64,000 bases of DNA from contig OZ246890.1 in the NCBI GenBank assembly GCA_965231815.1, positions 1,799,469 through 1,863,468 of the forward strand. The letters are read 5' to 3'. Within the stretch, counting starts at the first letter, position 1; each line of letters opens with the position of its first letter. The notes below the pieces were generated by a model, which saw nothing but the letters and a program-made list of their open reading frames with translations, ran no database searches and had not been told where the DNA came from. The stretch comes from Acidimicrobiia bacterium (GTDB lineage Bacteria; Actinomycetota; Acidimicrobiia; Spongiisociales; Spongiisociaceae). Shown piece by piece: positions 9,742-54,332 of this stretch. The position numbers and the translations under genes were made by a program.

Positions 9742-9754
9742 GCTCCGATCTTAG

Positions 9755-16258: not shown

Positions 16259-16260
16259 GA

Positions 16261-28513: not shown

Positions 28514-30262
28514 ATGAACTTGACCAGCAGCAACATCGAGCGCCGACTGCACCTCGGCGAAGACAGCCGTTGGGAGTTCAAAGCGATTGTCTTCACCGGG
28601 ACAGCGGTCAAAGGCCCACGCCAGCAGGATCTTGCGGATGAATTGTCGGCGTTCGCCAACGGACGAGGAGGGTTCCTTCTGTGCGGCGTAACGGATGACG
28701 GCCGAGTGCAGGGGATGACGCGAGCGCAGATGGACGCTCTGGAGCGGGTGCTGGTCGAAGCGTGCATCTCGTCGGTAAAGCCCTCTATCGACGTGGAGAT
28801 ATCTCGAATGGAGGCTGGTGGCGGGTCGCTCTTGGTGGTTGAAGTTCCGCCGGGGTACGCCCAGCACGACAGCCCGGGCGGCTGCTACCGCCGGGTGGGC
28901 AGTTCCAAACGCAGGATGACCAGCGACCAGTGTCTCCGGCTCGCTCAACAGAGAGGACAGGCCCGGTTTGTATGGTTTGATCGGCAGCCGGTGCCCGGCA
29001 CGGGGATCGAAACCCTGACCCATAGGCTGTGGAAACCATTGATCAGCGCGACAGGCGCCGCGGACACCCTGACGGCTCTCCAAAACCTGCGCCTGCTGGT
29101 CGGAGACGACGGTGACGTGTTGCGGGCGACGGTAGCAGGGATACTGCTGTGTACCGATGATCCGCAACGTTGGTTCCCTAATGCGTCCATAATGGCCACT
29201 CTCTACTCGGGCCGTGATCGAGCCTCCGGGCAGCACGACGCGCAGGAGATCACCGGTCCGCTCCATGAGCAGATCGCCGGGGCGGTACGGTTCGTGTTGC
29301 GCAACATGCGAGTGGCTGCTCGCAAGACACCCGGACGGGTTGACATACCTCAATACAGTATCGAGGCGGTATTCGAGGCCGTGGTGAACGCGGTGGCGCA
29401 CCGCGACTATTCCGTTCAGGGACAACGGATCAGGCTGTCGATGTTCGCGGATCGGCTGGAGATCGACTCACCGGGCGCTCTTCCCAACGGCATGACCATT
29501 GAGAACATGGAGGTCAGCCAATCCACACGAAACGACGTCATTGCGTCGGTCTTCGGGCGGGTTGCCGTAGCCGGCATCCCCGGTTCGCAGAACCGTCAAT
29601 TCCTCATGGAACGCCGAGGTGACGGGGTGGCCGTCATTCTTAGGCGAACCCGGGAGACATCCGGTCGGGATCCGGTTTACCGGCTGATCGACGAGTCCAA
29701 CCTCGGGCTGACTATCCCGGCCGCCTCCCTCGAGTTTGTCCCGGCCCATGCCACCGTCTCGGTTCGATCCTCGGCCGGTCCTCTCCCCGGCGCTGATGTC
29801 CTGATCCTATTCCCGAACAACACCTGGAAACGGGCCGTGACCGGCGAGAACGGGGAGACCACCGTCGCGCTGTACACGACGCATCTGCCCATGAGGGTGT
29901 TCGTAGCAGCCACCGGCTACTCGGCGCATGTGGGTAAGGAATGGATTCCCGGCCGGGGTGGGATGGTTGTTGAGCTTGATGATCTCCCCGCCGGCGGGGC
30001 GGTAATCTTTCCGGAGGGAACCGGATATGTTCCGGGATTGGCAGGGCGATTGAACCCAATCCGCGATGGCCATGACAGAACCTACCTGTACGCGTCCAAC
30101 GTCGCAATCGAGCGGGGACGCCCGCAGCCGGCCCATTTCGTACTCGGGGAAGAACTAAGCCTCACCGACGCCGAAGGCCGGGAGGTGTTGGTTCGTATGG
30201 TTGACATAGCCGGTAGCTCGGCGCTGCTTGAGTACCGGTTTCCGGTTGCTAGCCCTGATTAA
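28514..30262 (+). CDS. Schlafen-like AlbA_2 (divergent AAA) + HATPase_c_4 domain protein with ~190-aa extra C-terminal region
   Basis: N-terminal EFK ... ELSAFANGRGGFLLCGVTDDG; central NAVAHRDYSVQGQRIRLSMFADRLEIDSPGALPNGMT. Confidence 0.7.
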   Translation: MNLTSSNIERRLHLGEDSRWEFKAIVFTGTAVKGPRQQDLADELSAFANGRGGFLLCGVTDDGRVQGMTRAQMDALERVLVEACISSVKPSIDVEISRMEAGGGSLLVVEVPPGYAQHDSPGGCYRRVGSSKRRMTSDQCLRLAQQRGQARFVWFDRQPVPGTGIETLTHRLWKPLISATGAADTLTALQNLRLLVGDDGDVLRATVAGILLCTDDPQRWFPNASIMATLYSGRDRASGQHDAQEITGPLHEQIAGAVRFVLRNMRVAARKTPGRVDIPQYSIEAVFEAVVNAVAHRDYSVQGQRIRLSMFADRLEIDSPGALPNGMTIENMEVSQSTRNDVIASVFGRVAVAGIPGSQNRQFLMERRGDGVAVILRRTRETSGRDPVYRLIDESNLGLTIPAASLEFVPAHATVSVRSSAGPLPGADVLILFPNNTWKRAVTGENGETTVALYTTHLPMRVFVAATGYSAHVGKEWIPGRGGMVVELDDLPAGGAVIFPEGTGYVPGLAGRLNPIRDGHDRTYLYASNVAIERGRPQPAHFVLGEELSLTDAEGREVLVRMVDIAGSSALLEYRFPVASPD

Positions 30263-31100: not shown

Positions 31101-31127
31101 AGGTGGTCAGGACCATGGCGGAGGCTA

Positions 31128-31243
31128 GGAGGGTGCTGAGAAACCCCGTACAAAGGGGTTCACCCGCTAACCCACAACTCCATGACCAGGCGGTTTGCCG
31201 ACCACCGAACCCCGTAAGATTCGTTTTTCAGGACTCTCCTAGG
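31128..31243 (+). repeat. Interspersed repeat family A copy A3
   Basis: CTAGGAGGGTGCTGAGAAACCCCGTACAAAGGGGTTCACCCGCTAACCCACAACTCCATGACCAGGCGGTTTGCC ... TTTTTCAGGACTCTCCTAG; between DUF2520 gene and panC. Confidence 0.75.
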
Positions 31244-34598: not shown

Positions 34599-35510
34599 AT
34601 GGCCGTCTCCGTGTTGACGGTCGATTGCCACCTCCATCTGACCGAATCCGCCGAGCAGGCGCCCATCTGGTGGATGGAGGAACTGTACCGCCCGTACGGC
34701 GGCGACTACGTCTGGACGGACGGGGCGGCGATCGTTCGCATTCTGGACCGGGCGGGGGCCGACATCGGAATGGTCCAGGGTTCCGACATCCGCCGCACCA
34801 CCTTCCATCCCGACTTTCCGGATCAGCGTAATGTGTACGTGCCGAATGATTACACGGCCCGGCAGGTGGCCCGGTTTCCCGACCGGCTGATCGGTGTCGC
34901 CAACATCGACCCTTTGAGGGACGTACGAGCCGGAGTCATCGAGCAGCGTCGTTGCGTGGAAGAGTTGGGCTTCAAGTCCTCGAAGTTTTTGCCTACCTAC
35001 CAGAACTACTACATCGACGATCCGGCTGTGGCCCCCATGTTCGAAAGTTGCCTGGAACTCGACATAGTCGCCCATGTGAACACCGGTTACTCGCCGACGA
35101 TCACCGCGGCCCTCCGGTACGGACACCCGGAACGCCTCGACCGGATCGGGATTCGCTACCGCGACCTGCGGGTTCTCGTCTACGTCAATTTCCCGTATGT
35201 AGATGAGGGGATCGCGGTAGTGGCTCGCCATCCCAACTTCTACGCCGACATCGCCTACTTCGTCGGCGCCGGACCGGAGTCCCTCTTCGACGCCCTCGAC
35301 AAACTTCGGGGCTTGGATGCGCTCGATCGGGTGGTCTACGGCTCGGACAACAACGACAAGGACCGGACCGGAGGTGGGCAGAGGATCGGAACCCACCTGT
35401 TGGACGAGCTAAACGGAGTGGCCGAGCGCAGGGACCGAGAGCCTTTCGTGGCGGCGCAGATCGAGGGCATCGTGGGCGGTAACGCGCGGCGTCTTTACAA
35501 ACTGGACTGA
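34599..35510 (+). CDS. Amidohydrolase-2 family (TIM-barrel metal-dependent hydrolase/decarboxylase-like) protein, paralogue 1
   Basis: HxH motif VDCHLHL; close paralogue immediately downstream. Confidence 0.7.
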   Translation: MAVSVLTVDCHLHLTESAEQAPIWWMEELYRPYGGDYVWTDGAAIVRILDRAGADIGMVQGSDIRRTTFHPDFPDQRNVYVPNDYTARQVARFPDRLIGVANIDPLRDVRAGVIEQRRCVEELGFKSSKFLPTYQNYYIDDPAVAPMFESCLELDIVAHVNTGYSPTITAALRYGHPERLDRIGIRYRDLRVLVYVNFPYVDEGIAVVARHPNFYADIAYFVGAGPESLFDALDKLRGLDALDRVVYGSDNNDKDRTGGGQRIGTHLLDELNGVAERRDREPFVAAQIEGIVGGNARRLYKLD

Positions 35511-35514
35511 GCCG

Positions 35515-36435
35515 ATGCCCACCGTCGACGTTCTGCTGTACCTGACCGAAGCCCCTCGCCATGCGCCCGTATGGTGGATGGAGGAGCTCTACCGTCCGTA
35601 TGGAGGGGAATACCGCTGGACCGACGGCGCGACTCTGGTGGATCTTCTCGATCAGGCCGGAATCGAAGTAGGTCTGGCGCATGGTTCGGACATACGTCGC
35701 ACCACTTTCCATCCGAGCTTTCCGGACGAACACGATGTGCACGTGCCCAACGACTACACCGCAGCCCAGTGCGCCGCCTATCCGGGGCGGCTCTACGGAG
35801 TGGTGTGTGTGGATCCGTTGCGCGACGTTCGCCGGGCCACGGAGGAGATCGATCGTTGCGTTCGAGAATACGGGTTCCGCATGATGAAGCTCCTACCCAC
35901 CTATCACCATCACGATCCCGATGACCGGAGGCTGGCGCCCGTCTACGAGAAGTGTTTGGAACTCGACATTCCGATCCATACCCATTCGGGGTTCACACCG
36001 ATCATCAACGCTCCTATGCACCATGCCCGCCCGGTTCTGCTCGACGAACTCGGGATCCGCTACCGGGAGCTCAAAGTGATTGTCTATCTGGCATTTCCCT
36101 ACGTGGACGAAGGTATCGCGGTGGTGGCTCGCCATCCCAACTTCTATGCCGATCTGTCCTACTACGCCGGAGGGGATCCCCGCGATCTCTATGGGGTACT
36201 GAACAAACTAAGGAGCCTAGGAGCCCTGGATCGGGCGGTCTACGGGTCCGATAACAACGACAAACAGAAATCCGGCCCCGGCGGAGTGGCGTCCGGCATT
36301 TTCCGCAACGTGAACCGGGTAGCCCGTCAGGTGGGGGGTTCCGAACTCAGCGCCGCCGAACTCAAGGCCATCATGGGCGGCACGGCCTCCCGTCTCCTGA
36401 GAATCCCGGACCGCGTTTCCGCTACGGTTGAATGA
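35515..36435 (+). CDS. Amidohydrolase-2 family protein, paralogue 2
   Basis: Long collinear similarity to 34599-35510 (WWMEELYRPYGG ... FPYVDEGIAVVARHPNFYAD ... VYGSDNNDK). Confidence 0.7.
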   Translation: MPTVDVLLYLTEAPRHAPVWWMEELYRPYGGEYRWTDGATLVDLLDQAGIEVGLAHGSDIRRTTFHPSFPDEHDVHVPNDYTAAQCAAYPGRLYGVVCVDPLRDVRRATEEIDRCVREYGFRMMKLLPTYHHHDPDDRRLAPVYEKCLELDIPIHTHSGFTPIINAPMHHARPVLLDELGIRYRELKVIVYLAFPYVDEGIAVVARHPNFYADLSYYAGGDPRDLYGVLNKLRSLGALDRAVYGSDNNDKQKSGPGGVASGIFRNVNRVARQVGGSELSAAELKAIMGGTASRLLRIPDRVSATVE

Positions 36436-36455
36436 GTGTCTTATTACCCACGGGT

Positions 36456-37775
36456 CTATCTCGACGGGGTCGGCAAGACATCGAAAACCGTCGGTTCTGA
36501 CACGTTCGCTTCCAGAGCGGTGAGAGCGGTTTCCACCACCCGCCGTCGATGCTCGAGTTCGTCGGCCTCGTCGAGGCTCGGATCGCCGAAGGGGTGGGTA
36601 ACGGCGTTGCCCTGGACGATCCGCAGCACTCCGACCGATTCGGCGAGCGGAACCAGCGCGGTGACCAAGGCGGCCGGGATACCCTGATTCTCGATTGACT
36701 TTGCCAGCGTAGACCCGCTACGCGTGCCCGTTCCTCAGGTAGAGCCCACGATCACCGCCTGCACCCCGTCGTCAATCAGAGAGCGTCCCATCTCGGCGCC
36801 TATCCGGGTCATGTCCCGAAGGGATCCCATATTGCCGGTGGTGCTCAGCAGGTCGCCATGCAGGGTAAAGCGGCCCTGTTCTTCCAGCGAGCGGGCTGCA
36901 TCGAGCGGAACCTGACGGTCGGGGTCGAGGTTGGCGAAACTGGTGTCGATGCCGCCGTGTACCGACTCGAACTCACCTTCCCTGAACCCATCCTTATCGT
37001 GGATCGGGTAGGCATACCACTTGGTAGCCCATCCCGAAGGCAGCCGGTCGGGGTTGCCGGTCGGAACGATCCCCGCTTCGGTCACCAGCGCCAGCCGGAA
37101 GGGCGCGCCCGCCACGATGGGGTCGGACGGCTCGGCCGGCCCGTACCGGGGAAGGGGCCATTCTGTCTCGTACGGCGCCCCGCGCATCTTGGCGAGCAGC
37201 ATCTCGATCGCCCTCGTTGACCCTCTAACGGATTCGAACGTGTTGCGCCGGAAGCCTTTGGTGAGGGTTCCCTCCTCCTGTGCGGCGCCGAGGCGCCGGC
37301 CGCGGCCCAGTTTGGCCACCAGCCGCGCGAGCCCCTGCAGTGCGGCCCCCATACCGGCGGCGGTCTCGGCGGTGGAAAGAACGGGAACCGAGGCCCGGTA
37401 CTCGACGGCGCCCGGGCTATCGGCATGGAGCCCGGTCACGGACGGTATTCCGAGCCGGTCGGTCACGGCTTTGCAGACTGCGCCGCAGGCAAGACCGTAC
37501 CTACCGGATCCGAATCCCGGACCCGCCACCACGATATGGGGCTCGAATCCGGCTATCAGGTCTACCACCTCGTCTACCGCGGCCTCCCCGCGCTCGGCCA
37601 TGTAGTTGTCGCCGCAGATAACCGTGCCCACGATCCGCTCGTCATCTTCCAGCAGGCGGTCCAGGCCCCTACCCGTACCTACCGGTCCCGGTTGAGAGAC
37701 CGGTCCGCTCCCGGCACGGTCCTCCCCGCCGACCCCACCGAAGAACTGGTTTAGATAGTGGACGATCCTGATCAT
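36456..37775 (-). CDS. grdB: Glycine/sarcosine/betaine reductase selenoprotein B family, with in-frame UGA (Sec) at 36735-36737
   Basis: Motifs flanking the UGA AVIVGST-U-GTGTRSG and downstream GIPAALVTALVP ... RIVQGNAVTHPFGDPSL are conserved; two listed ORFs (36735-37775, 36456-36668) are collinear through TGA. Confidence 0.8.
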
Positions 37776-37782
37776 GGTCCTA

Positions 37783-39117
37783 TCAGTACTCCTCGCCGCG
37801 AATGCATGTGTGTCCGAACTGGTGCGTGCTTGCCAGCACGACCGCTAGCGGGGCTTCGAAGGCCCCCGCAGGATCGTTCTCGATCTGGATCAGGCGTTCT
37901 CCGCCGATAACTCGCTCCACGGACTCGAAAAGGACAGTCTCCTCGTAGTTCCCGGTGCTAACTATGGCATCCGCTTCCGGTACGAAGTGGACGAAGCCCG
38001 ACTCTCCCGGATTGGCGGCCATCTCCATCGACAGCATCGTTGTCGCTACTCCGCGTCGTTCTAGATTCCGGCAAACCATCATGGCATCGACCGCCGGATG
38101 TCCTCCCCCGGCGTAGTTGATCAGCGCCCCTTCCGCTCCCATCATTATCGCCAGGTTGGAGGCATGGTTGGCAAGTCGTTCCTTGGCGGCCCGCGTGTCG
38201 CCGTTGGTGAACAGCACCACTCCCCGGAATTCGATGTCCTTACCGTGACGAGCGTACAGATCCTCGATGATGGCGTGGTTCTGCACCGTATAGGTCAGTT
38301 CCCTCATGCAGGCGATAGCGTTCCAGCCGCACACCAGCGCCCCGTCGAGCAACTCGTTCGGATGGATCGGTGTGGGGAGATGTGCGCTGCCACCGATTGC
38401 GCCGGCGCCGGGGGCGATCTCGCCATGCAGAAAGGGGATGGCAAGTTGGTAAAGGTAGACGACTGCAGGCAGGTCTCGCACCCCTGAAGGAGCCAGATCG
38501 AAGGTGTCTACCCGGTCGGGTGTCTGACCGAGGGTGGCGGACGCCAAGTGCCTGGCGGCCTTTAGGCCGGCCAACCTGACCGCCCGATTGTATTCCACCG
38601 CCTCCGGAGTTCCCTCGAAGATGTTGTCAGGCCGGTCGCCGCTCTCGAGAAGGGAGCGGGTCGGTTCGCACGACACCACCACGTTGATGAGTTCGGAGAA
38701 GGGAGAGTACCTGGCGGTGGGGCCCGCCATGTCGAAGATCGCCTCTCGCCAGTAGCGGGGCTCTCCCGGCACCGGACGCGCCGTCTCGACGACCGATACC
38801 CCCTTGAGAGCATAGGTGGCGCCGGACCCGACCGGTCGGGGGCCGGTAAGGAGGCCCGAGAAGTCGGCGCCTTCCGGATCCACCTTGATCCGCGGCTCGA
38901 CCGCGTCGATGGCGTTTATGACCCTTACCGGGTCTCCCGGTCTGACGATACTTACCGATACAGAAGCAAAGTTGGGGTCGTCGGCCAGTATTTCCTCAAG
39001 TGCGTCTATGTCGATGGTGAGCACCCCGCCGGCCAACTCCGTGTGGGAGCCTTCCCTGACCTCGGTGACCTGGAAGGAGCCGATATCCAGTACCTGGCGG
39101 AGCGGGCCCGAGTTCAC
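37783..39117 (-). CDS. grdE: Glycine reductase proprotein GrdE-like (PrdA/GrdE family)
   Basis: DGALVCGWNAIACMRELTYTVQNHAIIEDLYARHGKDIE follows the proprotein family pattern. Confidence 0.75.
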   Translation of the reverse strand: MNSGPLRQVLDIGSFQVTEVREGSHTELAGGVLTIDIDALEEILADDPNFASVSVSIVRPGDPVRVINAIDAVEPRIKVDPEGADFSGLLTGPRPVGSGATYALKGVSVVETARPVPGEPRYWREAIFDMAGPTARYSPFSELINVVVSCEPTRSLLESGDRPDNIFEGTPEAVEYNRAVRLAGLKAARHLASATLGQTPDRVDTFDLAPSGVRDLPAVVYLYQLAIPFLHGEIAPGAGAIGGSAHLPTPIHPNELLDGALVCGWNAIACMRELTYTVQNHAIIEDLYARHGKDIEFRGVVLFTNGDTRAAKERLANHASNLAIMMGAEGALINYAGGGHPAVDAMMVCRNLERRGVATTMLSMEMAANPGESGFVHFVPEADAIVSTGNYEETVLFESVERVIGGERLIQIENDPAGAFEAPLAVVLASTHQFGHTCIRGEEY

Positions 39118-39175
39118 CGTGACGATCCCTTCACGACCAGGCGGTGGTCGGGACGTTCCGTGTAGACGACGCGCC

Positions 39176-40165
39176 TCATATAACCTGTGGCAGTCCGAGC
39201 ATCCGGCGTGCCTGAGCGGGGGTGGCGATCTCGCGGTTCATCTCTTCGGCGACGCGACGTATCCGGCTCACCAACTGCCCGTTGCCGCTGGCCTTTTCTC
39301 CCCGCCGGAAGTAGATGTTGTCTTCCAGTCCTACCCGCACATGGCCGCCGAGGAGGATTCCCAGGACGTTCATCGGGATCTGAAAGGGTCCGGTCCCGAT
39401 GACCGAGAAAAGGGCGCCGGACGGCAACTCGTTGATGAGCGACATGAGGTTGGCAGGGGTCGGGAAGGACGCCGTCTGCGCGCCGAGGACGAACTGGACC
39501 ATGTATGGAGGGGTGACATTCTCGTTGTATATGAGGTCTCGAAGTACCCAGTACTGGCCCGGGTCGTAGATCTCGAGTTCAGGCTTCATACCCCGTTCCA
39601 CGATTATGGACGCGTAGTGGTTGATCTCGCCGTAGGTTGTCCCGCTGCACATGTCGTATTCGATCGGCCCGCGGGGGTGCGGTAGGTGGGCGGGACGCTC
39701 CGGCATGGTGAAACTTGACACGAATGGACCGAGGTTGAGAGTCGCCACGTCGGGCGCCGGGTCGGAGAACAACGGGGAGTAGCGTTCTTCGGTGGTCAGA
39801 GTCGGACCACCACCGGTGCTGTTGTTGATTATCACGTCGGGGCACTGCTCGCGGATCATCCGGTTCACGCGCCCGTAGTCCTCCGGGTTCCCGCTGCACT
39901 GGCTCCAGTCCTGCGGGTCCCTGACGTGCACATGGATCTGTGAAGCTCCTGCTTCGTATGCCTGGCGCGCTTCCTCGGCTTGCTCCTCGGGTGTCTCCGG
40001 TAGGGCGGGATTCGACTCCTTGCCGTGGCCGCCTCCGCTTATGGCAGCGGTGATGATCAAGGGCGGAAACGCGCTACGGGCTGTTTTCCGCATCCAGAGA
40101 TACGGGTCACGAAAGTCCCAGGTTGCTTCGATTTCACCCATGTTGTCCCTTTTCGCGCCAATCAA
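39176..40165 (-). CDS. 3-keto-5-aminohexanoate cleavage enzyme family (BKACE/DUF849)
   Basis: PLIITAAISGG ... IHVHVRDP ... GLEDN TIM-barrel signature; start may be the internal Met at 40141. Confidence 0.7.
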   Translation of the reverse strand: MIGAKRDNMGEIEATWDFRDPYLWMRKTARSAFPPLIITAAISGGGHGKESNPALPETPEEQAEEARQAYEAGASQIHVHVRDPQDWSQCSGNPEDYGRVNRMIREQCPDVIINNSTGGGPTLTTEERYSPLFSDPAPDVATLNLGPFVSSFTMPERPAHLPHPRGPIEYDMCSGTTYGEINHYASIIVERGMKPELEIYDPGQYWVLRDLIYNENVTPPYMVQFVLGAQTASFPTPANLMSLINELPSGALFSVIGTGPFQIPMNVLGILLGGHVRVGLEDNIYFRRGEKASGNGQLVSRIRRVAEEMNREIATPAQARRMLGLPQVI

Positions 40166-40261
40166 CCGTCCGACCGGCTCCGTACGGTTTCGAGGAGTCG
40201 CCGACCGATCCGGTACATAACCTACCCTATTTCTTAGACCTTACCTGTCACGACGGGCTGG

Positions 40262-40621
40262 CTAGGAGGCGAGTGGTTCCAGCTTGGACAGCAGGTCCGA
40301 GACGTGCGCCAGGTAGTCCTCGACGGTTTCGCCGGGCAGCCAGCCTTCATAGAGGTTGGTGTGTAGGGCGCCTGCCAGGCCGAACGCGGTCCGAATGTCC
40401 CGGTCTCCGGTCTCGTCCGCTAGGCGGTTGACCACGCGCCATAGCTGGTGATGTCCACCGTGGGGCCATCCTCGGGCCTCGGCGATGCTCTTGACCATCT
40501 GAGCAGCGGCGCCCTAGCCCTTCTCGGAGGCTTGCAGCAGGTCGCCCTCGGCTAGGTAGGTCCGGGCTCTGGCCAGAAACTCCCGTCCGGTAGTGTTGTA
40601 GTATCTTGTCTTAGTAGTCAT
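40262..40621 (-). pseudogene. HEPN-like small protein disrupted by an in-frame TAG (probable TGG to TAG nonsense mutation)
   Basis: Minus-strand reading MTTKTRYYNTTGREFLARARTYLAEGDLLQASEKG-TAG-GAAAQMVKSIAEARGWPHGGHH; both halves in one frame separated only by the stop at 40514-40516. Confidence 0.45.
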
Positions 40622-41063
40622 GGGGATATCATATCGTAATTGTGGGTAAATGAAGCAGCCGGGCGACGGTGTTTCTCAACAGGTCGGCCGTCTCGTCTTC
40701 AGCCACGACCAGCGCGCCATAGCGCTCCATGTCGAGCCGGTTGGGCGCGTGGTGAGGGAACCGGGAACCGCATGTCGGTGTTGATGATGGGGGTCATTCC
40801 GGTGAAGAAGTGAACCGGGATGTCGAGTTTCCAAGGCCTTCTCGTAGATAGGATCGAGTCTACGGTCACTCTTGTGGTGCTCGCCGCGGCAGTCATCGAC
40901 CCGGAGCGCACCCGCCGCTGATCACGGGAACCAGTCGCATGGCGACCGTCCGGCGATTCGAGACCGGGCCGCACCTCGGTTGCGACTACCCTCCATACTT
41001 CGAGAAAATATGCGGACCCCCGTTGTGCTGCGGGTCCGGTCAGCCTGGAGACTGCAAGAGTTT

Positions 41064-42488
41064 ATGCGGGAACCCGCCATCCTCAATAGCGCCTACGCGC
41101 TGGCCCACGCTCCCGAACTGGTGCGTTATGGATCGAAACCCGTTCGCGAGATCCGTCGTGATCCGTCTCTCCTGCCGTCGATGACCGAGGGGCTGCGGCC
41201 CTGGAATGAGGTGATCGGGTATCCACCCAACCAGGTTTTCATCGGCAATCTGCAACCTCGCGACCTTGTTTCGATCCCTCGACCCTGGTACAGGAACCGG
41301 GTCGAGCATGCCGTCCCTTCCGGGCCTTTCGGGCGGATGATCACCCAAGCCGCGCTCTACGGGCTCATGAAGTTGTGTGATGACTTCGATCTGTTGACTA
41401 TCGACGAGAAGCTTGCCGAACAGGCCAGGCTGGAACTCATCGAGTTCGATCACCGTAGGGACCGGATCGTCGGCGCCGATCCGGCCGAGTTGAAGGAACT
41501 CCTCGACGGGGGTAGCGGTCTTCCGCTCTACCACGGCACTCGCGTCGCGGGTTTCATTCGTACGGCCCATGAACAGGACGCCTCGCTGGCGGCATCGGTC
41601 TTGCTCGAGAACCTGGCGTGCAAGGCGACCGCGGTCCTAGCGGTTTCCGATCTTCTGAGGTACGGCAGCCTTGCGCCCTCTCGGGTCGATTACCTGTTCA
41701 ACAGCGGTGAGGAGGCGGTCGGAGACCGCTACCAGCGGGGGGGCGGGAGCCTCTCGAAGGCGATCGGCGAAGTGGTGGGATGCGTGAACGCCACCGGGTC
41801 CGACCTCAAGGCGTTCTGTGCCGCTCCCGTCCACGCCCTTATCGCGAGCGGGGCGATGGTTGCCGCGGGACTCTACGATCACGTCGTGGTCCTCGGCGGC
41901 GGCTCGCTGGCCAAACTAGGTATGAAGTTCGCAGCCCACCTTCGCAACGGGGTACCGGTCATGGAGGACTGTCTGGCTTCCATGGCTTTCCTGGTAGGAC
42001 TCGCCGACGGAGACGCAATGCGGTTGCGGCTCGACCTGACGGGCAAGCATCCGATCGGCGCCGGGTCGTCCCCCCGCGCGGTATACGAGGCGTTGGTGAT
42101 CGAACCGTTGGCCAGGGTCGGTCTTGGCATCACCGACGTCGACAGGTACGCGGTGGAGATGCATAACCCGGAGATCACCGAACCGGGAGGGAGCGGCGAC
42201 GTTCCCAGAACCAACTACCGTACTCTCGGAGCGATGGCGGTGCTGCAGGGAGAGATCGGGAGAAGCGACATCAATCGTTTCGTGGCTGAACACGGAATGC
42301 CGGGCTTCGCTCCCACACAAGGCCACATTCCCGCCGGAGTACCCTATCTGGGCCATGCTCAGCAGGCTATGGATCGGCAGGAACTGGACAGGGCGATGAT
42401 CGTCGCCAAGGGAAGCCTGTTCCTGGGACGGATGACGCAGTTGGTGGACGGGGTCTCTTTCGTGGTTGAAAAGGAACGCCGTCCGTGA
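41064..42488 (+). CDS. GrdC-like protein (glycine reductase protein C component, PlsX/FA_synthesis fold), tentative
   Basis: ~475 aa, HVVVLGGGSLAKLGMKF pattern; sits directly upstream of grdA; start uncertain (ORF begins at 40872). Confidence 0.45.
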   Translation: MREPAILNSAYALAHAPELVRYGSKPVREIRRDPSLLPSMTEGLRPWNEVIGYPPNQVFIGNLQPRDLVSIPRPWYRNRVEHAVPSGPFGRMITQAALYGLMKLCDDFDLLTIDEKLAEQARLELIEFDHRRDRIVGADPAELKELLDGGSGLPLYHGTRVAGFIRTAHEQDASLAASVLLENLACKATAVLAVSDLLRYGSLAPSRVDYLFNSGEEAVGDRYQRGGGSLSKAIGEVVGCVNATGSDLKAFCAAPVHALIASGAMVAAGLYDHVVVLGGGSLAKLGMKFAAHLRNGVPVMEDCLASMAFLVGLADGDAMRLRLDLTGKHPIGAGSSPRAVYEALVIEPLARVGLGITDVDRYAVEMHNPEITEPGGSGDVPRTNYRTLGAMAVLQGEIGRSDINRFVAEHGMPGFAPTQGHIPAGVPYLGHAQQAMDRQELDRAMIVAKGSLFLGRMTQLVDGVSFVVEKERRP

Positions 42489-42526
42489 AGGCCGTAACGA
42501 CCGATGAGATGAAAGGAGTCCGACAC

Positions 42527-42979
42527 ATGGACTTGAAGGGCAAGAGCGTGGTGGCGATCGGTGAGCGGGAGGGGGTCAACGGACCCAGCCTCAAGCTGCT
42601 GGCCGAATCCGCCGGCGCCGATGTGGTGTTCAGCGTTACCCAGTGCTTCGTCTGAACGGCGGGGGGCGCCATGGACCTGGAGGATCAGGCGAACGTCAAC
42701 CGCCTGGCCGAGACCTCCGTCGGTGACGAGATGGTCGTGTTGCTCGGGCAACCGGACGCCAACAGCGCCGGTCTCTTCGCAGAGACGGTAACGAGTGGCG
42801 ATCCGACCTGGGCTGGTCCTTTGGCCGGAGTCCCGTTGGGACTTCCTGTTTATCACATACTGGAGCCGGAGATCAAAGAACAGATCGATGAAGAACTCTA
42901 TGACGAGCACGTTGGCCTGATGGAGTTGTCGGCCGATGTGGATGAGATAATCCACTGGGTGGCGATCTGCAGAGATTGA
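42527..42979 (+). CDS. grdA: Glycine reductase complex selenoprotein A, in-frame UGA (Sec) at 42653-42655
   Basis: SD AAAGGAG 8 nt upstream of the ATG; MDLKGKSVVAIGEREGVNGPS ... VVFSVTQCFV-U-TAGGAMDLEDQ ... GDPTWAGPLAGVPLGLPVYHILEPE. Confidence 0.85.
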
Positions 42980-43130
42980 GACCGTACTTCCTTCGATGCT
43001 CCGGCCCGCCTGCCCCGGCGTAGGCAGGGCAGCAGGCTAAGTGCCTTACCCGGCCCCGGGTTCCGGTGCCCGAACGTGTGCGGGACCCGCGGAGGATGAT
43101 CGAAGCTGTATTACCTGGTCAGGACGTGAC

Positions 43131-43246
43131 TAGGAGGTGCTGAGAAACCCCGTACAAAGGGGTTCAGCCGCTAACCCACAACTCCATGACCAGGCGGTTT
43201 GCCGACCACCGAACCCCGTGAGATTCGTTTTTGAGCACCCTCCCAG
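43131..43246 (+). repeat. Interspersed repeat family A copy A4
   Basis: Near-identical to A3; preceded at ~43105-43125 by an inverted fragment of the family B core. Confidence 0.75.
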
Positions 43247-43625
43247 TGTCCCGAGTCGGAAGTTCCGTGCACATCGCGAGTAACCACCCGGCCTGCTTCC
43301 GGCACAGACCCGGGTTAAGATCGCGAAAACCGAACTACCCGGATGGGACCCCTCTCAGTGGGACCCACCCCCGGCCGCCGCCTCCTCAGCGTCGAAACGC
43401 GTCCCGCTAACCCCTCGCCTTGCCAAACAGAGGCAAGGCAGAAGAAAACAAGCAAGATGATCCCAACCCCGGTCCGGTCGGTACCTGACCCAACCGTCGG
43501 TGCTTTACGGTTACCCACCAGTATGCAGACCGGGTATGACAGATTTCCCCGGCCGTCGGGTTACGCCCGTCGGAAAGATTTCGCGGTCTCCCGAACACAA
43601 GCGAAACAACGATTCACGACACTAG

Positions 43626-43832
43626 GCCCGATTATTCATGGATGGAGGTTTGGAGGATGAGTGGAGTAGACCATATTCGCGCCCTGACCAGGCAATACAG
43701 CTATCGGCGTTTCCCATCCCGGTCCTATTTAGAGATTCACCTATCGGGTGAACGGTGGGTAGCCCCCCAAAACTCGGGTGGAACTGGCGTAACATGCCTC
43801 GGTGTGTGGGAAACCTGAATAATCAGGGCTAG
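43626..43832 (+). repeat. Interspersed repeat family B copy B2
   Basis: Full-length B copy just downstream of the polyprenyl synthase gene. Confidence 0.7.
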
Positions 43833-43887: not shown

Positions 43888-44883
43888 TCATCCGCTCGCC
43901 TGGTGGACCCGGTCGACCAGATAGGCGCCCATAGTCCGCAGCACGGAACGGGCGGTGACGTCAGGTAGGGAATCGATTGCTTCCGAGGCGGTATCGAGGC
44001 GCCGAACACACTGCTCCAGCACCCTGTCGATGTAACCACCCTCCCGGACCAGACCGATTACTTCTTCGACTGCACGATCCGAGTACGGCACGCCTTCCTC
44101 TAGGAGCTCGCGGACTCGGGCCCCGGTCGGACCTTCCAAGGCATAGAGAACCGGAAGGGTGTAGACCCCTTGACGAATGTCGCTTCCGGCGGGTTTGCCG
44201 ATTTGTTCATCGGTGGCTACCAGGTCGAGCGCATCGTCGGTTATCTGGAAGACCATTCCCAATTCCCAGGTGGCGGTTGATAGGGCCTCCACGAACTCCC
44301 GTGGAGCGTCGGCGGCGATCGCTCCCATCCGCGCGGCGGTCCTGATCAGGCTCGCGGTCTTGCCCTCCATGATCCGGTAGTGCTCGGCAGGGCCGTGTGC
44401 CAGGTCTCCGGTCAGGTGCAGCTCGAGTGCTTGTCCCTCCACTAGTTCCGTGTAGGTCCGCGCCAATAGCGCGACCGTCTCCAGGCCCAGGGTATCCGCT
44501 GCGAGCTCGGAGGCCTTGGCGATGAGGAAGTCTCCGGCCAGGATGGCCTGGGAGTTCTTCCATCTAACGTTCACCGAGAGGGTTCCCCGCCGGGTCTCAG
44601 CCTCGTCTATCACGTCATCGTGGTACAGCGATCCGACATGGATGAGTTCAACCGCCGCTCCGGCATCGACCAAGCGGTGGTCGTGGGAGGGTCCGAATTC
44701 CCCTGCGAGTTGGGTAAGGATAGGTCGAAAGCGTTTCCCGCCCGCCACCAGCAAGTGTTGGGTGATCTCGGTCAGGTAGGGATCGCCGGCGGCCGACACC
44801 TCTAGGAGGCGTTCCTCGACCAGTCCGATTCGATCCCACACCTCGGGTAGGTCGATAAGGTCCGGGAGAGTCAGGGTGGCCAT
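43888..44883 (-). CDS. Polyprenyl (geranylgeranyl/farnesyl) diphosphate synthase
   Basis: First Asp-rich motif LYHDDVID and second QITDDALD; start at MATLTLPDL; the listed ORF extension to 45189 runs into repeat B3. Confidence 0.8.
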   Translation of the reverse strand: MATLTLPDLIDLPEVWDRIGLVEERLLEVSAAGDPYLTEITQHLLVAGGKRFRPILTQLAGEFGPSHDHRLVDAGAAVELIHVGSLYHDDVIDEAETRRGTLSVNVRWKNSQAILAGDFLIAKASELAADTLGLETVALLARTYTELVEGQALELHLTGDLAHGPAEHYRIMEGKTASLIRTAARMGAIAADAPREFVEALSTATWELGMVFQITDDALDLVATDEQIGKPAGSDIRQGVYTLPVLYALEGPTGARVRELLEEGVPYSDRAVEEVIGLVREGGYIDRVLEQCVRRLDTASEAIDSLPDVTARSVLRTMGAYLVDRVHQASG

Positions 44884-44974
44884 TTCGTTTGCTCCGCCTC
44901 GGGAAAAGGTCTTCCCTATGCTAAAGACATGTGCATTGATCGCCACCATCGTCGGGTCGATCCACTTTGGCGTA

Positions 44975-45184
44975 ACCCCTATTTTTGATGGATGGGGGTT
45001 TGGGTATGGGTGGAGGAAGCCACAATAGCGTCCTGACCAGGCAATACACCTATCGGCGTTTCCCGTCCCGGTCCGGTGTGGAGATGCACCCGCCGGGTGA
45101 AACCGGTCGGTTCCTACTAAATAATCAGGTTGAACCGGCGATACATGCCGCGGTGTGTGGGAAACCCGAACGATCAGGGTTAAA
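44975..45184 (+). repeat. Interspersed repeat family B copy B3
   Basis: Full-length B copy between the polyprenyl synthase start and clpC. Confidence 0.7.
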
Positions 45185-45262
45185 GTCACTAATAGGAATC
45201 AGGAGGGCTTAAGCTTGTATCCTCGGAGGGGTAGAGTCATGGGTCCGGGGAGGTGTTAGGTA

Positions 45263-47752: not shown

Positions 47753-47865
47753 ACGTTCCGCATTGCGATTTACCGGCCCGCTCGCTTCTGCCCTGGTTCA
47801 GAACGCGGTAGACTGACCGGCACCTAGTATCCCTGTGGCGGGGTTCGATGAGGAGGAAGGGCACC

Positions 47866-48966
47866 ATGTTGTACACGAGAAACAGGCTGTTGATCTTGTT
47901 GATGGCTCTCGGGCTGCTGGTTACGGCATGCGGTGGCGATGATGATCCGAGTGTCCTCACCGCAACCCAAGTGACCTCCGACTCGCCCGACGCTCCTCCC
48001 CCTCCTGCTGCTGGTGAGGCGATCAGGGTTGGTTTGGTGTATGACATCGGTGGTAGGGGTGATCAGTCGTTCAATGATGCGGCAGCGATTGGTTTGGATC
48101 GTGCGGCGTCTGAGTTGGGTATTGAGTTCTCGGAGGCTTCGGCTAACGAGGATGGGACGAATCGTGAGGAGTTGTTGGCGCTGCAAGCTTCCGAAGGCGC
48201 TGACCTGGTGATCGGGGTGGGTTTCTTGTTCGGTGAGCCGATGGCCAATGTGGCGTCCGAGTTTCCCGATACGCACTTTGCGATTGTGGATTCGACGGTT
48301 GATTCTCCCAATGTGGCGGGGTTGATCTTTGCTGAGGAGCAGGGTTCGTTTCTGGTGGGTGTGGCTGCGGCTCTCAAGACCCGGAATGAGACTGTCGGTT
48401 TCATCGGTGGTGTGAACATTCCGTTGATCCATGCGTTCGAGGCGGGGTTCCTGGCTGGTGTCCAAGCTGTCAATCCGGATATCACGATCCTTTCGCAGTA
48501 CGTGACGGAGCCGCCGGATTTTGATGGTTTTAACGATCCTGCGGCGGGCCGGGTGGTTGCCCAGTCGATGTTCGAGCAGGGCGCCGATGTGATTTATCAC
48601 GCGGCGGGTGGTACCGGTGGTGGTTTGTTCCAGGCTGCGAAGGACTTTTCGGAGGCCAACGACACTCATGTGTGGGCTATAGGGGTTGACTCGGACCAGT
48701 ACTTGACCGCCGGTGACTTCCAGTCGTACATCCTGACTTCGATGCTCAAGCGGGTGGATGTGGCGGTGTTCAACACCATCCAGGCTGTCCAGAACGGTAC
48801 GTTCAATGCGGGCCCACAGGTTTTCGATCTCTCGGTCGACGGGGTCGGCTATTCCACGTCGGGCGGGTTCGTTGACGATATTGCTGCCGAACTTGAGGAC
48901 TATAAGCAGCAGATCGTGTCCGGGACGATTAACGTGAGTCCAGACCCGGCTGATTACCAGGGCTGA
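47866..48966 (+). CDS. BMP-family (PnrA-like) ABC transporter substrate-binding lipoprotein, probably nucleoside-binding
   Basis: Lipobox LLVTAC; SD GGAGG 9 nt upstream of the ATG; mature domain has G/T-rich codon usage. Confidence 0.85.
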   Translation: MLYTRNRLLILLMALGLLVTACGGDDDPSVLTATQVTSDSPDAPPPPAAGEAIRVGLVYDIGGRGDQSFNDAAAIGLDRAASELGIEFSEASANEDGTNREELLALQASEGADLVIGVGFLFGEPMANVASEFPDTHFAIVDSTVDSPNVAGLIFAEEQGSFLVGVAAALKTRNETVGFIGGVNIPLIHAFEAGFLAGVQAVNPDITILSQYVTEPPDFDGFNDPAAGRVVAQSMFEQGADVIYHAAGGTGGGLFQAAKDFSEANDTHVWAIGVDSDQYLTAGDFQSYILTSMLKRVDVAVFNTIQAVQNGTFNAGPQVFDLSVDGVGYSTSGGFVDDIAAELEDYKQQIVSGTINVSPDPADYQG

Positions 48967-49005
48967 TGATCAGGAGGATCCGGTGGATGTTCGACCGGTG
49001 AACGT

Positions 49006-52924: not shown

Positions 52925-53053
52925 GGCCATCAGTTTCCAGTTTCTGGTTACAGGTTGCCAAGATATATTGCACGGCGTTGGACGGCGATAGTAAGTGCGG
53001 TGCCGTCGGCTTCCGGTCATGTTCCTCGGAAGCCGGCACCCGGCAACTGACAA

Positions 53054-53989: not shown

Positions 53990-54098
53990 CGGATTCTCCC
54001 TTCCCTGTTGACAGGATTCCGGCGGGTCAGCTCGACAATCCGGTGCTTCACCGCTCTTGTCAACCCGAACGTCACGAAACGGTTCGAGCCGACCACTC

Positions 54099-54304
54099 CT
54101 AGCCCTGATTATTCAGGTTTCCCGCACACCGAGGCATGTAACACCAGTTCCAACCCGAGTATACGGCGAAACCCACCATTCACCCGGAGGTGAATCTCTG
54201 CACCGGCCCGGGATGGGAGACACCGATAGTTGTATTGCCTGGTCAGGGGCGTGATTACGGCGTAATCGACTCATCTGTCAAACCCCCATCCATGAATAAT
54301 CGGG
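54099..54304 (-). repeat. Interspersed repeat family B copy B4 (reverse orientation)
   Basis: CTAGCCCTGATTATTCAGGTTTCCCGCACACCGAGGCATG ... CCATCCATGAATAATCGGGG. Confidence 0.7.
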
Positions 54305-54332
54305 GCTGAAGTAGGACTGATGGTTATCGTTC

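Follow-up and report, generated by a model that had tools for sequence, protein, structure and literature searches.

A divergent Grd-like selenoprotein cluster adjoining a BKACE gene in Acidimicrobiia: a tentative carnitine-type route without GrdD

The gene cluster between lysS and clpC in the genome of this sponge-symbiont Acidimicrobiia bacterium may represent an undescribed branch of the Grd selenoenzymes wired to a BKACE enzyme, and a carnitine-type route through betainyl-CoA that works without GrdD is tentatively proposed for it from the sequences. The analysis covered a window of 64 kb, that is the whole stretch of DNA studied. The features of the cluster are as follows.

34599-35510, plus strand: Amidohydro_2 paralogue a, 303 aa (Pfam PF04909, E=1e-21)
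35515-36435, plus strand: Amidohydro_2 paralogue b, 306 aa (Pfam PF04909, E=7e-32)
36459-37775, minus strand: grdB', GrdB-like selenoprotein B', 439 aa (Pfam GRDB, PF07355, E=2e-114)
36707-36723, minus strand: SECIS-like hairpin of grdB', 6 bp, starting 15 nt past the UGA
37783-39117, minus strand: grdE', Gly_reductase/GrdE-like substrate-binding subunit, 444 aa (Pfam PF09338, E=9e-96)
39176-40165, minus strand: BKACE (Pfam PF05853, E=4e-82)
40262-40621, minus strand: PaREP1-family (HEPN-like) pseudogene, premature TAG at 40516..40514
41064-42488, plus strand: GrdC, component C beta subunit, 474 aa (NF040746, 591 bits against a cut-off of 450)
42527-42979, plus strand: GrdA, selenoprotein A, 150 aa (NF040748, 197 bits against a cut-off of 130)

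The genes named in the original prediction were all found in place with strong Pfam and NCBIfam scores. Upstream lie panC, coaX and lysS, downstream a polyprenyl synthase gene and clpC, which bears out the placement between lysS and clpC. The minus-strand operon is ordered BKACE-grdE'-grdB' with BKACE as first gene. The seven core ORFs are all intact, and two selenoproteins (GrdA and B') are encoded, each with an in-frame UGA. The HEPN-like pseudogene that had been noticed is real; it is of the PaREP1 family, shows a TAG where L003, a 93%-identical relative, has Trp (the intact L003 copy scored 81 bits with PF05942), and is outside the pathway. The repeats described 3' of grdA are equally real and recur elsewhere in the 64-kb window.

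A horizontally acquired island that is decaying into a non-functional remnant could be suspected from this pseudogene, from a probable Amidohydro_2 fragment that lies with it between BKACE and grdC, from the repeat elements flanking grdA and from the accessory genes of relatives (3HCDH, GCV_T, transporter and TRZ/ATZ amidohydrolase), none of which was found in the 64-kb window. This explanation is hardly credible, as the core ORFs are intact and the UGA codons and their downstream frames are conserved. The same arrangement is preserved in L003 at 91-98% protein identity, and the substitutions between the two are strongly biased by codon phase (66, 13 and 29 mismatches in grdE'), so that grdE' is under purifying selection. 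The SECIS hairpin is also upheld by compensatory changes.

The Asn-Cys self-cleavage site of the GrdE homologue, on which the original prediction had left a question, was analysed in an alignment that took the C. difficile pyruvoyl peptide C242-VSAC... (PMC9908766) as its anchor, and the cleavage Cys was absent. In the GWN-AIAC stretch of E', W265-N266 aligned to the canonical N-C of GrdE/GrdG, C270, the second Cys, being the sole one retained. The pyruvoyl-forming Cys was missing from 114 of 115 homologues. E' further differs from GrdE/G/I by two insertions and a C-terminal deletion. Its top NCBIfam model was GrdG (229 bits against a cut-off of 780) and the second best was FarE (138 bits against 675), and E' with its relatives formed a clade apart from GrdE/GrdG and from GrdI. 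The alignment shows an E'/B' component that is predicted to be unable to form the pyruvoyl group, and a primary or secondary amine would therefore not be activated as a Schiff base. The pyruvoyl Cys is required for such activation of glycine and sarcosine, which are improbable substrates because the group would not form. The earlier proposal of a substrate other than glycine, sarcosine or betaine stands for the first two, but the candidates now in the lead are betaine-type substrates, which carry a good leaving group such as a quaternary amine. GrdI and FarE, which act on substrates with good leaving groups, are also reported to have lost the pyruvoyl Cys (PMC10838667). An E-type subunit of this Cys-less kind suits a substrate that can lose its leaving group without a Schiff base.

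The selenocysteine of B' is residue 347 (in-frame TGA at 36737..36735) and is followed by a conserved continuation of 92 aa. Alignment with GrdB, GrdF and GrdH revealed the motif ST-U-GTGTRSG against the canonical ST-U-GTCTRCG; the selenocysteine is retained while both Cys of U-xx-C-xx-C are gone. FarB is likewise reported to be without CxxC (PMC10838667). B' scored 425 bits with the subfamily model TIGR01918 and fell below the cut-offs of GrdB (405 against 602), GrdF (427 against 800) and GrdH (370 against 775). In a fold alignment of 12 sequences, 3 of the 6 pairs of the grdB' hairpin were preserved through two-sided changes between the E'/B' family and canonical grdB/F/H, which points to a SECIS-like element conserved through compensatory changes.

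The glycine and sarcosine reductases GrdE/GrdB and GrdG/GrdF of Acetoanaerobium noterae (L030) and Peptoclostridium acidaminophilum (L029) share the folds and families (PF09338, PF07355) and the position of the SECIS hairpin with this cluster, and GrdG and GrdF score best among the NCBIfam models; with these reductases E' shares 31-33% and B' 39-41% identity. Unlike in these systems, no Asn-Cys site, UxxCxxC, GrdD or grdX-trxB-trxA is present here. The betaine reductase of Enterococcus gilvus pCR1A (L031; GrdH/GrdI with GrdA, GrdC and GrdD, of the P. acidaminophilum type) has in common with the cluster a selenoprotein B with ST-U-G, a selenoprotein A with CxxU, GrdC and an E-type subunit without the pyruvoyl-forming Cys. 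It differs in that E' lies outside the GrdI clade, B' is far from GrdH in score and without the UxxCxxC Cys, grdD, trxB/trxA and a BCCT transporter are missing from this cluster, and GrdC is tail-less. The host belongs to Acidimicrobiia, with oxygenase genes (P450, Rieske) in related loci, and is not a fermenting Firmicute. Comparison with the substrate classes thus placed E' in a separate clade and both E' and B' far under the equivalog cut-offs; with Trp-Asn in E' and the CxxC loss in B' as well, the cluster matches no characterised reductase operon for glycine, sarcosine or betaine.

GrdA and GrdC are orthodox, both exceeding their equivalog cut-offs. The Sec of GrdA is residue 43 (TGA 42653-42655) in the motif C-F-V-U, and the TGA is kept in relatives. 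The start of GrdC is at 41064, the listed ORF start at 40872 being an N-terminal over-extension. Its tail after KGSLFLGRM has 17 aa; 22 GrdD-less loci had tails of 13-27 aa, whereas those of 3 GrdD-containing reference clusters measured 47-50 aa. Alignment shows that the GrdC of this cluster lacks the C-terminal tail, about 25-30 aa long, of GrdCs having a GrdD partner. The local lack of grdD, trxA and trxB, already suspected, was confirmed by tblastn over the 64-kb window with 3 GrdD, 2 TrxB and 2 Trx references. By the same method GrdD was found in 0 of 28 related GrdC-holding loci and in every GrdC-holding locus with canonical GrdE or GrdI. The E. gilvus reference GrdD is PlsX-like (PF02504), the subunit assigned to acetyl-phosphate formation.

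These data bear on the reading that the cluster is a plain reductase for glycine, sarcosine or betaine, with grdD, trxA and trxB encoded elsewhere in the genome and with BKACE and the amidohydrolases as unrelated neighbours. The orthodox GrdA and GrdC fit it, a housekeeping thioredoxin could serve GrdA, and scattering does occur, since many sponge-symbiont relatives have grdC and grdA more than 10 kb away from grdE'/grdB'. Parts encoded elsewhere, a distant grdD among them, may accordingly exist in this genome; the window and the 28 loci yielded no grdD. The missing pyruvoyl Cys, the low scores of B' and E' and the separate clade of E', the loss of the GrdC tail in GrdD-less loci and the conserved synteny described below largely refute this reading, which is improbable.

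The BKACE-GrdE'-GrdB' set with Amidohydro_2 genes was conserved in about 40 loci of sponge and open-ocean Acidimicrobiia. BKACE lies immediately upstream of grdE' in all the loci of this type, the two genes overlapping or being a few bases apart in L002 and L007, and the synteny of BKACE and Amidohydro_2 with grdE'/grdB' persisted down to 56% identity. Pelagic Acidimicrobiia carry a single co-directional operon, ABC-GCV_T-AH2-AH2-BKACE-E'-B'-GrdC-GrdA. The association of BKACE and amidohydrolases with the reductase is no accident of one genome. BKACE itself was below all NCBIfam equivalog cut-offs. Kce of lysine fermentation (PDB 2Y7D) was its best PDB and NCBIfam match (241 bits against 382), with the HxH and E-D metal/catalytic motifs lined up; a ~37-aa insertion and an N-terminal extension are absent from Kce, and no lysine-fermentation genes lie near BKACE.

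A 3HCDH-family gene was conserved together with the cluster across both sponge and pelagic lineages (53-73% identity). With 105-116 bits, where the cut-offs are 414-592, it was ruled out as a carnitine dehydrogenase orthologue; its identity to the enzyme of the metagenome contig L117 is 31%. All in one direction, this contig carries genes for a BKACE, a symporter, an ADP-forming acyl-CoA ligase, GrdH, a GrdI sharing 78% identity with its E. gilvus counterpart and an L-carnitine dehydrogenase (NF005471, 431 bits against 414). By joining canonical GrdHI to BKACE and carnitine dehydrogenase, the contig provides a natural precedent for the logic of the carnitine-type route. Against this route, the BKACE of the window is only 34% identical to that of L117 and scores about equally on Kce-type models. 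The aerobic carnitine catabolism of Pseudomonas/Sinorhizobium, as outlined in PMC9321204, uses L-carnitine dehydrogenase, BKACE (dehydrocarnitine cleavage enzyme) and betainyl-CoA thioesterase. The present loci resemble it in an intact-motif BKACE paired in relatives with a 3-hydroxyacyl-dehydrogenase-family gene. They differ in that the dehydrogenase is no CDH orthologue, no thioesterase was seen and a selenoprotein would reduce the betaine-level product where the aerobic route demethylates it.

In the carnitine-type route, the co-conserved 3-hydroxyacyl-dehydrogenase-family enzyme would convert a carnitine-type beta-hydroxy acid to 4-X-3-oxobutanoate, which BKACE with acetyl-CoA would split into acetoacetate and X-acetyl-CoA, most likely betainyl-CoA (X = trimethylammonium). 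The Sec of B' would attack the alpha-carbon and expel X as trimethylamine. The carboxymethyl/acetyl unit would pass to the GrdA selenocysteine and be released reductively through GrdC as acetyl thioester, with electrons for GrdA from a housekeeping thioredoxin. The acetyl thioester would return to BKACE as acetyl-CoA with no phosphorolysis to acetyl phosphate, which would explain a dispensable GrdD. Kohlstock et al. 2001 reportedly located an acetyl thioester on Cys359 of GrdD, which, if so, counts against GrdC alone completing the reaction. Also against the route, E' is by phylogeny no GrdI, and none of the accessory genes, the 3HCDH gene included, lies in the 64-kb window.

The route further leaves no necessary role for the Amidohydro_2 pair, its most tightly linked partner. 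Paralogues a and b are 55% identical and separated by a 4-nt gap. Paralogue a retains the N-terminal HxH metal motif (DCHLHL); its top PDB matches, LigW and LigJ, were weak (25-30 bits), and its orthologues (69-97% identity) adjoin reductase genes in related loci. Paralogue b has LxY (DVLLYL) in place of HxH, a loss shared by the L001 and L002 orthologues, and is therefore probably a non-catalytic or altered partner subunit. Hydrolysis of an ester/thioester precursor or of betainyl-CoA are candidate roles. Amidohydro_2 genes were in or beside almost every E'/B'-type locus long enough to show it, and a TRZ/ATZ-type Amidohydro_1, likewise without necessary role in the route, recurred in the majority of sponge loci and in a single pelagic one. 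These enzymes could instead serve in the breakdown of an N-heterocycle or amidino/guanidino compound (purine-/creatine-like, cyclic amidine), where they would open or deaminate the ring, the reductase would cleave an N-amidino-/N-formimino-glycine-type intermediate incapable of Schiff base formation and BKACE would just consume the acetyl-CoA produced. Classical purine fermentation ends in a selenium-dependent glycine reductase, an adenosine-deaminase equivalog lies near a pelagic operon (TIGR01430, 267 bits against 217), and xanthine-dehydrogenase-family genes adjoin a sister reductase (L028) and occur in the Amidohydro_2-rich locus L036. However, this gives no reason for BKACE directly upstream of grdE', no formiminotransferase or hydantoinase was seen at the loci, and the deaminases, adenosine deaminase excepted, are weakly assigned, far under equivalog cut-offs. 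To our knowledge amidine/guanidine leaving groups are without precedent in Grd chemistry, and such a substrate is quite unlikely.

The same GrdD-less, pyruvoyl-independent cleavage of X-CH2-CO- could also act on X as halide, sulfonate, dimethylsulfonium or similar, in a FarBE-like reductive dehalogenase/desulfonase using X-acetate or BKACE-made X-acetyl-CoA. The fluoroacetate reductase FarB/FarE of Cloacibacillus porcorum MFA1 is the reported precedent uniting loss of the CxxC beside Sec and of the E processing cysteines (PMC10838667). FarE is the second-best match of E', an NMT1/TauA-type binding protein belongs to the associated ABC transporter, and sulfatase genes are nearby in related loci. 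This alternative is unlikely, as its FarE score marks E' as no orthologue, and we know of no pathway to 4-halo- or 4-sulfo-3-oxobutanoate. The Far system is without BKACE or amidohydrolase partners, and its reported gene maps, unlike this cluster, include grdC and grdD (PMC10838667). The neighbours of related loci also favour methylated amines over halo-/sulfo-acids and form a quaternary-amine context: GCV_T finds its closest counterpart in the TMAO demethylase THF domain, weak similarity to GbcA/GbcB is seen in a Rieske oxygenase and reductase, a choline-sulfatase-like gene is near the cluster in L002, and sister-clade reductases adjoin MttB-family, MR_MLE and DUF1989 genes.

Sponge Acidimicrobiia were earlier assigned to a 'carnitine-metabolising' symbiont guild (PMC5649159). 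The net reaction of the carnitine-type route, carnitine = trimethylamine + acetoacetate, would be atom- and redox-balanced and independent of oxygen, and by its gene content the cluster may thus let these bacteria convert carnitine-like compounds to trimethylamine and acetoacetate without oxygen.

The gene content of the cluster at 34599-42979 was analysed by Pfam and NCBIfam searches. Seven intact genes and one pseudogene were found, with Pfam E-values of 1e-21 to 1e-114, and they are arranged as follows.

34599-35510, forward strand: Amidohydro_2 paralogue a (PF04909)
35515-36435, forward strand: Amidohydro_2 paralogue b (PF04909), 4 nt after paralogue a
37775..36459, reverse strand: GrdB-like selenoprotein gene (grdB'), last gene of the BKACE-grdE'-grdB' operon, which is convergent with the Amidohydro_2 pair
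39117..37783, reverse strand: GrdE-like gene (grdE'), middle gene of the same operon
40165..39176, reverse strand: BKACE, an enzyme that cleaves beta-keto acids; first gene of the operon
40621..40262, reverse strand: PaREP1-family (HEPN-like) pseudogene, between BKACE and grdC
41064-42488, forward strand: GrdC, diverging from BKACE
42527-42979, forward strand: GrdA, diverging from BKACE

The cluster is flanked upstream by panC, coaX and lysS and downstream by a polyprenyl synthase gene and clpC. The original prediction had described this content correctly, as the family matches, the pseudogene and the flanks were all found. A single change, TGG to TAG, has inactivated the PaREP1 gene, and in the close relative L003 (OY760694.1) the gene is intact, with Trp at the same site. 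The whole lysS-to-clpC arrangement is kept in this relative with 91-98% protein identity, and sponge-associated Acidimicrobiia ('Candidatus Spongiisociaceae') are the nearest genomes that have a name. The possibilities that the ORFs arose by chance or that the cluster consists of pseudogenes were rejected on the codon-phase bias against L003 and on a maintained SECIS hairpin. Neither a riboswitch nor any other Rfam family was matched in the cluster, and the sole match in the window was a tRNA-Thr.

GrdA is read through an in-frame TGA (42653-42655), which gives the canonical C-F-V-U and hence a C-x-x-U redox motif, and it passed the equivalog NF040748 with 197 bits against a cut-off of 130. 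In GrdB' the TGA at 36737..36735 is read through, which places Sec in an ST-U-G context, and the 92 residues past it gave a good alignment to their counterparts in canonical GrdB, GrdF and GrdH; the score for TIGR01918 was 425 bits against 65. The alignment also indicated loss of the U-x-x-C-x-x-C motif, GrdB' having ST-U-GTGTRSG against ST-U-GTCTRCG in canonical GrdB, GrdF and GrdH, and this altered motif is found in every locus of the window type. A 6-bp hairpin, common to canonical grdB, grdF and grdH, starts 15 nt past the grdB' UGA. Comparative alignment showed three hairpin pairs preserved through changes on both sides; in one compensatory pair a T-to-A change turns the codon of the second motif Cys (TGC) into Ser (AGC), and the partner base changes from A to T. 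The evidence for the SECIS element rests on this comparison because the single-sequence folds after both UGA codons were no better than shuffles (z = -0.3 and 0.0).

The pyruvoyl peptide of C. difficile GrdE was mapped experimentally and begins C242-V-S-A-C246-DKNPSYVHINNGVVEDLYAR (PMC9908766 supplement). The alignment placed G-W-N266-A-I-A-C270 of the window subunit GrdE' against G-N-C-V-S/A-A/P-C of canonical GrdE/GrdG. W265-N266 stands opposite N-C242 of C. difficile, A. noterae and P. acidaminophilum, and therefore the pyruvoyl-forming Cys is Asn and the preceding Asn is Trp in GrdE'. Retention of the Asn-Cys cleavage site had been left unclear in the original prediction; it proved to be absent, and the second Cys, C270, is kept. 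The same pyruvoyl-forming Cys is missing in 114 of the 115 best database homologues of GrdE', and the alignment showed GrdI of E. gilvus to be likewise without it. FarE has also been reported to lack this Cys (PMC10838667), and GrdI and FarE are the subunits with substrates whose leaving group can depart without a Schiff base. On the alignment, GrdE' is predicted to hold no pyruvoyl cofactor. In the NJ tree, GrdE' and all environmental pyruvoyl-less homologues form one clade, which is sister to GrdE/GrdG, with GrdI outside. No PDB match below E 0.01 was obtained for any GrdE-family sequence.

The window system was compared with reference clusters taken from annotated records of A. noterae (grdX-trxB-trxA-grdE-grdA-grdB-grdC-grdD), P. 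acidaminophilum (grdG-grdF), E. gilvus (trxB-trx-grdA-grdC-grdD-grdI-grdH-BCCT) and a Photobacterium. It stays below the NCBIfam cut-offs of glycine and sarcosine reductase (GrdB 405 against 602, GrdF 427 against 800, GrdG 229 against 780), and the Asn-Cys site of GrdE/GrdG is missing in GrdE'. The lack of the pyruvoyl Cys is shared with GrdI of betaine reductase; however, GrdB' is no GrdH orthologue (370 against a cut-off of 775) and GrdE' falls outside GrdI in the tree. Fluoroacetate reductase has been reported to lack CxxC in FarB and the processing cysteines in FarE (PMC10838667), and the window cluster has both losses in common with it. Unlike the reported FarE, GrdE' keeps its second Cys, and it scores 138 bits against 675 for NF053623. 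Since both motif losses are common to a dehalogenating reductase, the leaving group, denoted X below, could be other than a nitrogen compound. D-proline reductase was rejected, as the PrdA/PrdB models match short stretches only and GrdA and GrdC are present. Judged by these likenesses, the window system would work like a betaine- or fluoroacetate-type Grd reductase; it belongs to no characterised subfamily. In the literature searched, no paper connected BKACE to glycine reductase or Acidimicrobiia to Grd, and for betaine reductase in sponge symbionts unrelated papers only were returned.

The canonical component C consists of GrdC and the PlsX-like GrdD (PF02504), the latter forming acetyl phosphate. 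The window, in contrast, has GrdC (591 bits against the NCBIfam equivalog cut-off of 450) without GrdD, and the GrdC tail is missing. GrdD was not detected by tblastn in the 64-kb window, nor in 28 loci where GrdC accompanies a non-canonical GrdE, although the majority of GrdD-less loci extend >2 kb past grdC; the same search detected it in every GrdC-holding locus with canonical GrdE or GrdI. The GrdC tail after KGSLFLGRM is 17 aa in the window and 13-27 aa in 22 GrdD-less loci, against 47-50 aa in three GrdD-containing reference clusters. This co-variation suggests that GrdD is truly no partner here and is not merely encoded elsewhere. In most sponge relatives grdC and grdA lie >10 kb from grdE'/grdB', and therefore scattered genes are possible. 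Canonical clusters also have a dedicated thioredoxin and thioredoxin reductase, whereas tblastn gave no TrxA or TrxB in the 64-kb window. In the first set of related loci examined, L002 and L034 have a Trx gene next to grdA.

The BKACE matched PF05853 with 276 bits, and the HxH and E-D motifs of Kce (2Y7D) have IHVHVRD and GLEDNIY as their counterparts in the alignment. These motifs hold the Zn ligands and catalytic residues of the Kce structure, and because they are kept the protein should be an active beta-keto-acid:acetyl-CoA enzyme. It scores below every NCBIfam equivalog cut-off, with no dehydrocarnitine-cleavage model among its NCBIfam matches, and was assigned to none of the characterised substrate classes (Kce, 3-oxoadipate, 3,5-dioxohexanoate, dehydrocarnitine). 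The accessible text of the ASMC and NetSyn papers gave no residue-level rules for the BKACE substrate class. By gene content, GrdB' and GrdA make up a complete core for Sec-dependent reductive cleavage, with GrdC for handling the carboxymethyl unit. This core shares one operon with a predicted acetyl-CoA-consuming enzyme that would yield acyl-CoA and acetoacetate, and no acetyl-phosphate-forming subunit was detected.

The two Amidohydro_2 paralogues are 55% identical. The N-terminal HxH (DCHLHL) is kept in paralogue a, and LxY stands instead in paralogue b and in its orthologues of the related loci L001 and L002, which suggests that the pair forms a heteromer in which a single subunit is catalytic. 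Another pair type, having HxH in both members, was found upstream of BKACE in pelagic operons and in some sponge genomes. A window-specific stretch of ~225 bp upstream of BKACE (40700-40925) is weakly similar to Amidohydro_2 genes, and '...LLGNTAARLFRLP', with which an ORF of L003 (8199-8492) terminates, is the C-terminus of an Amidohydro_2 protein; the stretch and the ORF are probably left over from this other pair type. The search for PDB relatives gave nothing closer than 25-30-bit matches to LigW and LigJ and was uninformative on function. Five paralogues of the same narrow subfamily occur at 4216-12685 of L036, a contig from the same metagenome sample as L002, with no BKACE or Grd and with neighbours that include a MoCo dehydrogenase, short-chain dehydrogenases, an enoyl-CoA hydratase, an ADP-forming acyl-CoA ligase, MR_MLE, GCV_T and PhyH. 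The subfamily is expanded in that sample and is not restricted to Grd contexts, and L036 does not fix its function.

The pairing of GrdE/GrdB-type components with BKACE and amidohydrolases, noticed in the original prediction, recurs in the gene neighbourhoods of the relatives. The BKACE-GrdE'-GrdB' trio is conserved in ~40 loci, and Amidohydro_2 accompanies it in almost all loci that are long enough. On contigs of open-ocean Acidimicrobiia, from Tara and other marine sources, a single co-directional operon reads ABC ATPase-GCV_T-Amidohydro_2-Amidohydro_2-BKACE-GrdE'-GrdB'-GrdC-GrdA. BKACE is always directly upstream of grdE', the ORFs overlapping by 4 nt in L002 and lying 2 nt apart in L007, another related locus. 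The accessory genes recurring across lineages are one 3-hydroxyacyl-dehydrogenase-family gene (3HCDH, 53-73% identity), a GCV_T that matches TMAO demethylase best, in its THF-binding domain, a TRZ/ATZ-type Amidohydro_1 and an NMT1-type ABC transporter; none of these was found in the 64-kb window. Oxygenase genes (P450, Rieske) are also carried by the related loci.

In soils and sediments (L042-L116), GrdE/GrdB-like pairs that lack the pyruvoyl site G-N-C fall into many distinct classes, for example the E motif 'ALMFSYSAFTWFAQNH' with the B motif ST-U-GSSTRCGA, and the E motif 'GNYKIGTRTPT' with the B motif AT-U-GSGTRSGA. These pairs have no GrdD where GrdC and GrdA are in the locus. The pyruvoyl-less pairs in metagenomes form a large uncharacterised radiation. 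Two sister-clade reductases were seen in other contexts. At L028 7641-14709 the reductase occurs with a MoCo enzyme of the xanthine-dehydrogenase family, an MFS transporter, MR_MLE epimerase-like genes and DUF1989, the family to which the N-domain of TMAO demethylase belongs; at L035 5264-15434 it occurs with MR_MLE and an NMT1 ABC transporter, and an MttB-family methyltransferase follows grdA. These contexts suggest that other betaine-type substrates, e.g. proline betaine, may be used.

Several further elements were observed in the window. A ~210-bp repeat family has four copies of 77-89% identity (43623-43832, 9752-9961, 54098-54307 and 44977-45182). The polyprenyl-synthase ORF (43888-45189) is overlapped by one copy at its 5' end, and its family match starts only at residue ~115-137; the N-terminal ~100 codons of that ORF are therefore probably not coding. 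A ~118-bp intergenic repeat family, with 78-94% identity and copies in both orientations (43129-43246, 31125-31242, 16255-16373 and 2770-2885), could be a MITE/REP-like element. A Schlafen AlbA_2/HATPase_c_4 protein just upstream of the pan genes (28514-30262, forward strand) and a 1283-aa protein with a Top1 zinc ribbon, DUF559 and a DEAD-box helicase (10251-14102, forward strand) could be related to defence or mobile elements. Downstream of clpC, at 47848-53989, lie a Bmp/PnrA-type nucleoside ABC transporter (binding protein, ATPase and two permeases) and an inosine-uridine nucleoside hydrolase. In pelagic relatives an NMT1-like binding-protein gene, weakly similar to Bmp/B6 transporters, and an adenosine deaminase lie near the reductase operon. 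A link to the use of nucleosides or heterocycles may thus exist.

A reaction scheme can be proposed for the conserved genes. The BKACE would convert 4-X-3-oxobutanoate and acetyl-CoA to acetoacetate and X-acetyl-CoA. GrdE'/GrdB' would then remove X, either from the free acid or, as the more economical variant, from the thioester, and GrdA and GrdC would release an acetyl thioester that returns to BKACE as acetyl-CoA. With trimethylammonium as X, the substrate would be dehydrocarnitine; with the dehydrogenase step included, the redox-neutral sum would be carnitine = trimethylamine + acetoacetate (C7H15NO3 = C3H9N + C4H6O3). In its full form, BKACE, GrdE', GrdB', GrdA and the tail-less GrdC would be an acetyl-recycling unit, the reductase acting on betainyl-CoA or another X-acetyl-CoA and not on the free acid, and acetyl-CoA being regenerated for BKACE, so that a carnitine-type compound is turned into trimethylamine and acetoacetate without O2, net CoA/ATP or acetyl phosphate. 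This full form is put forward tentatively and is judged rather unlikely. Kohlstock et al. (2001) reportedly found that the acetyl thioester of protein C forms on GrdD; if so, this would weigh against completion of the reaction by GrdC alone.

That X is a quaternary amine is favoured by several observations. The pyruvoyl site of GrdE' is lost as in GrdI and FarE, a choline-sulfatase-like neighbour is present in L002, and the relatives contain a Tdm/DmdA-like GCV_T as well as GbcB-like reductase and Rieske proteins. The MttB-family, betaine-epimerase-like MR_MLE and DUF1989 genes adjoin the sister-clade reductases. Sponge Acidimicrobiia were also placed earlier in a carnitine-using guild (PMC5649159). 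The most direct support comes from the metagenome contig Ga0134095_1000171 (L117, 267-8977), in which BKACE, L-carnitine dehydrogenase, a Na+/solute symporter, an ADP-forming acyl-CoA ligase, GrdI and GrdH are co-directional. Its dehydrogenase passes NF005471 (431 bits against 414), and its GrdI is 78% identical to that of E. gilvus. This operon, for which no description was found in the literature searched, looks like a carnitine to betaine to trimethylamine route via canonical betaine reductase; by its gene set, BKACE-based carnitine cleavage would therefore be coupled to betaine reduction in nature.

Other results weigh against the proposed scheme. The window contains no L-carnitine dehydrogenase orthologue, and the co-conserved 3HCDH was rejected as a carnitine dehydrogenase, scoring 105-116 bits against cut-offs of 414-592. 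The window BKACE is 34% identical to the carnitine-linked BKACE of L117, and GrdE' is no GrdI. The Amidohydro_2 pair and the TRZ/ATZ hydrolase are not needed in the scheme, yet Amidohydro_2 is among the most constant neighbours.

Grd-type selenoenzymes are Stickland enzymes of strict anaerobes, in which energy is conserved as acetyl phosphate. The present system differs from this textbook picture in its hosts, Acidimicrobiia of sponges and the open ocean with oxygenase genes in related loci, and in having no detectable acetyl-phosphate subunit, a predicted lack of the pyruvoyl cofactor, an altered Sec motif and an operon shared with BKACE. The survey also opens a large set of pyruvoyl-less Grd-like clusters, none with grdD where grdC is in the locus. 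If the proposed scheme is true, it would provide an O2-independent route from carnitine-like osmolytes to trimethylamine, a climate-relevant metabolite of the nitrogen cycle, would account in part for the 'carnitine guild' signal of sponge symbionts, and would show a Grd complex able to deliver acetyl-CoA instead of ATP or acetyl phosphate. Acetyl recycling would then be a new catalytic mode for Grd selenoenzymes and, for oxic seawater and sponge holobionts, a trimethylamine source not recognised so far, and the other pyruvoyl-less, GrdD-less clusters of soils and sediments would be reductases for diverse betaines.
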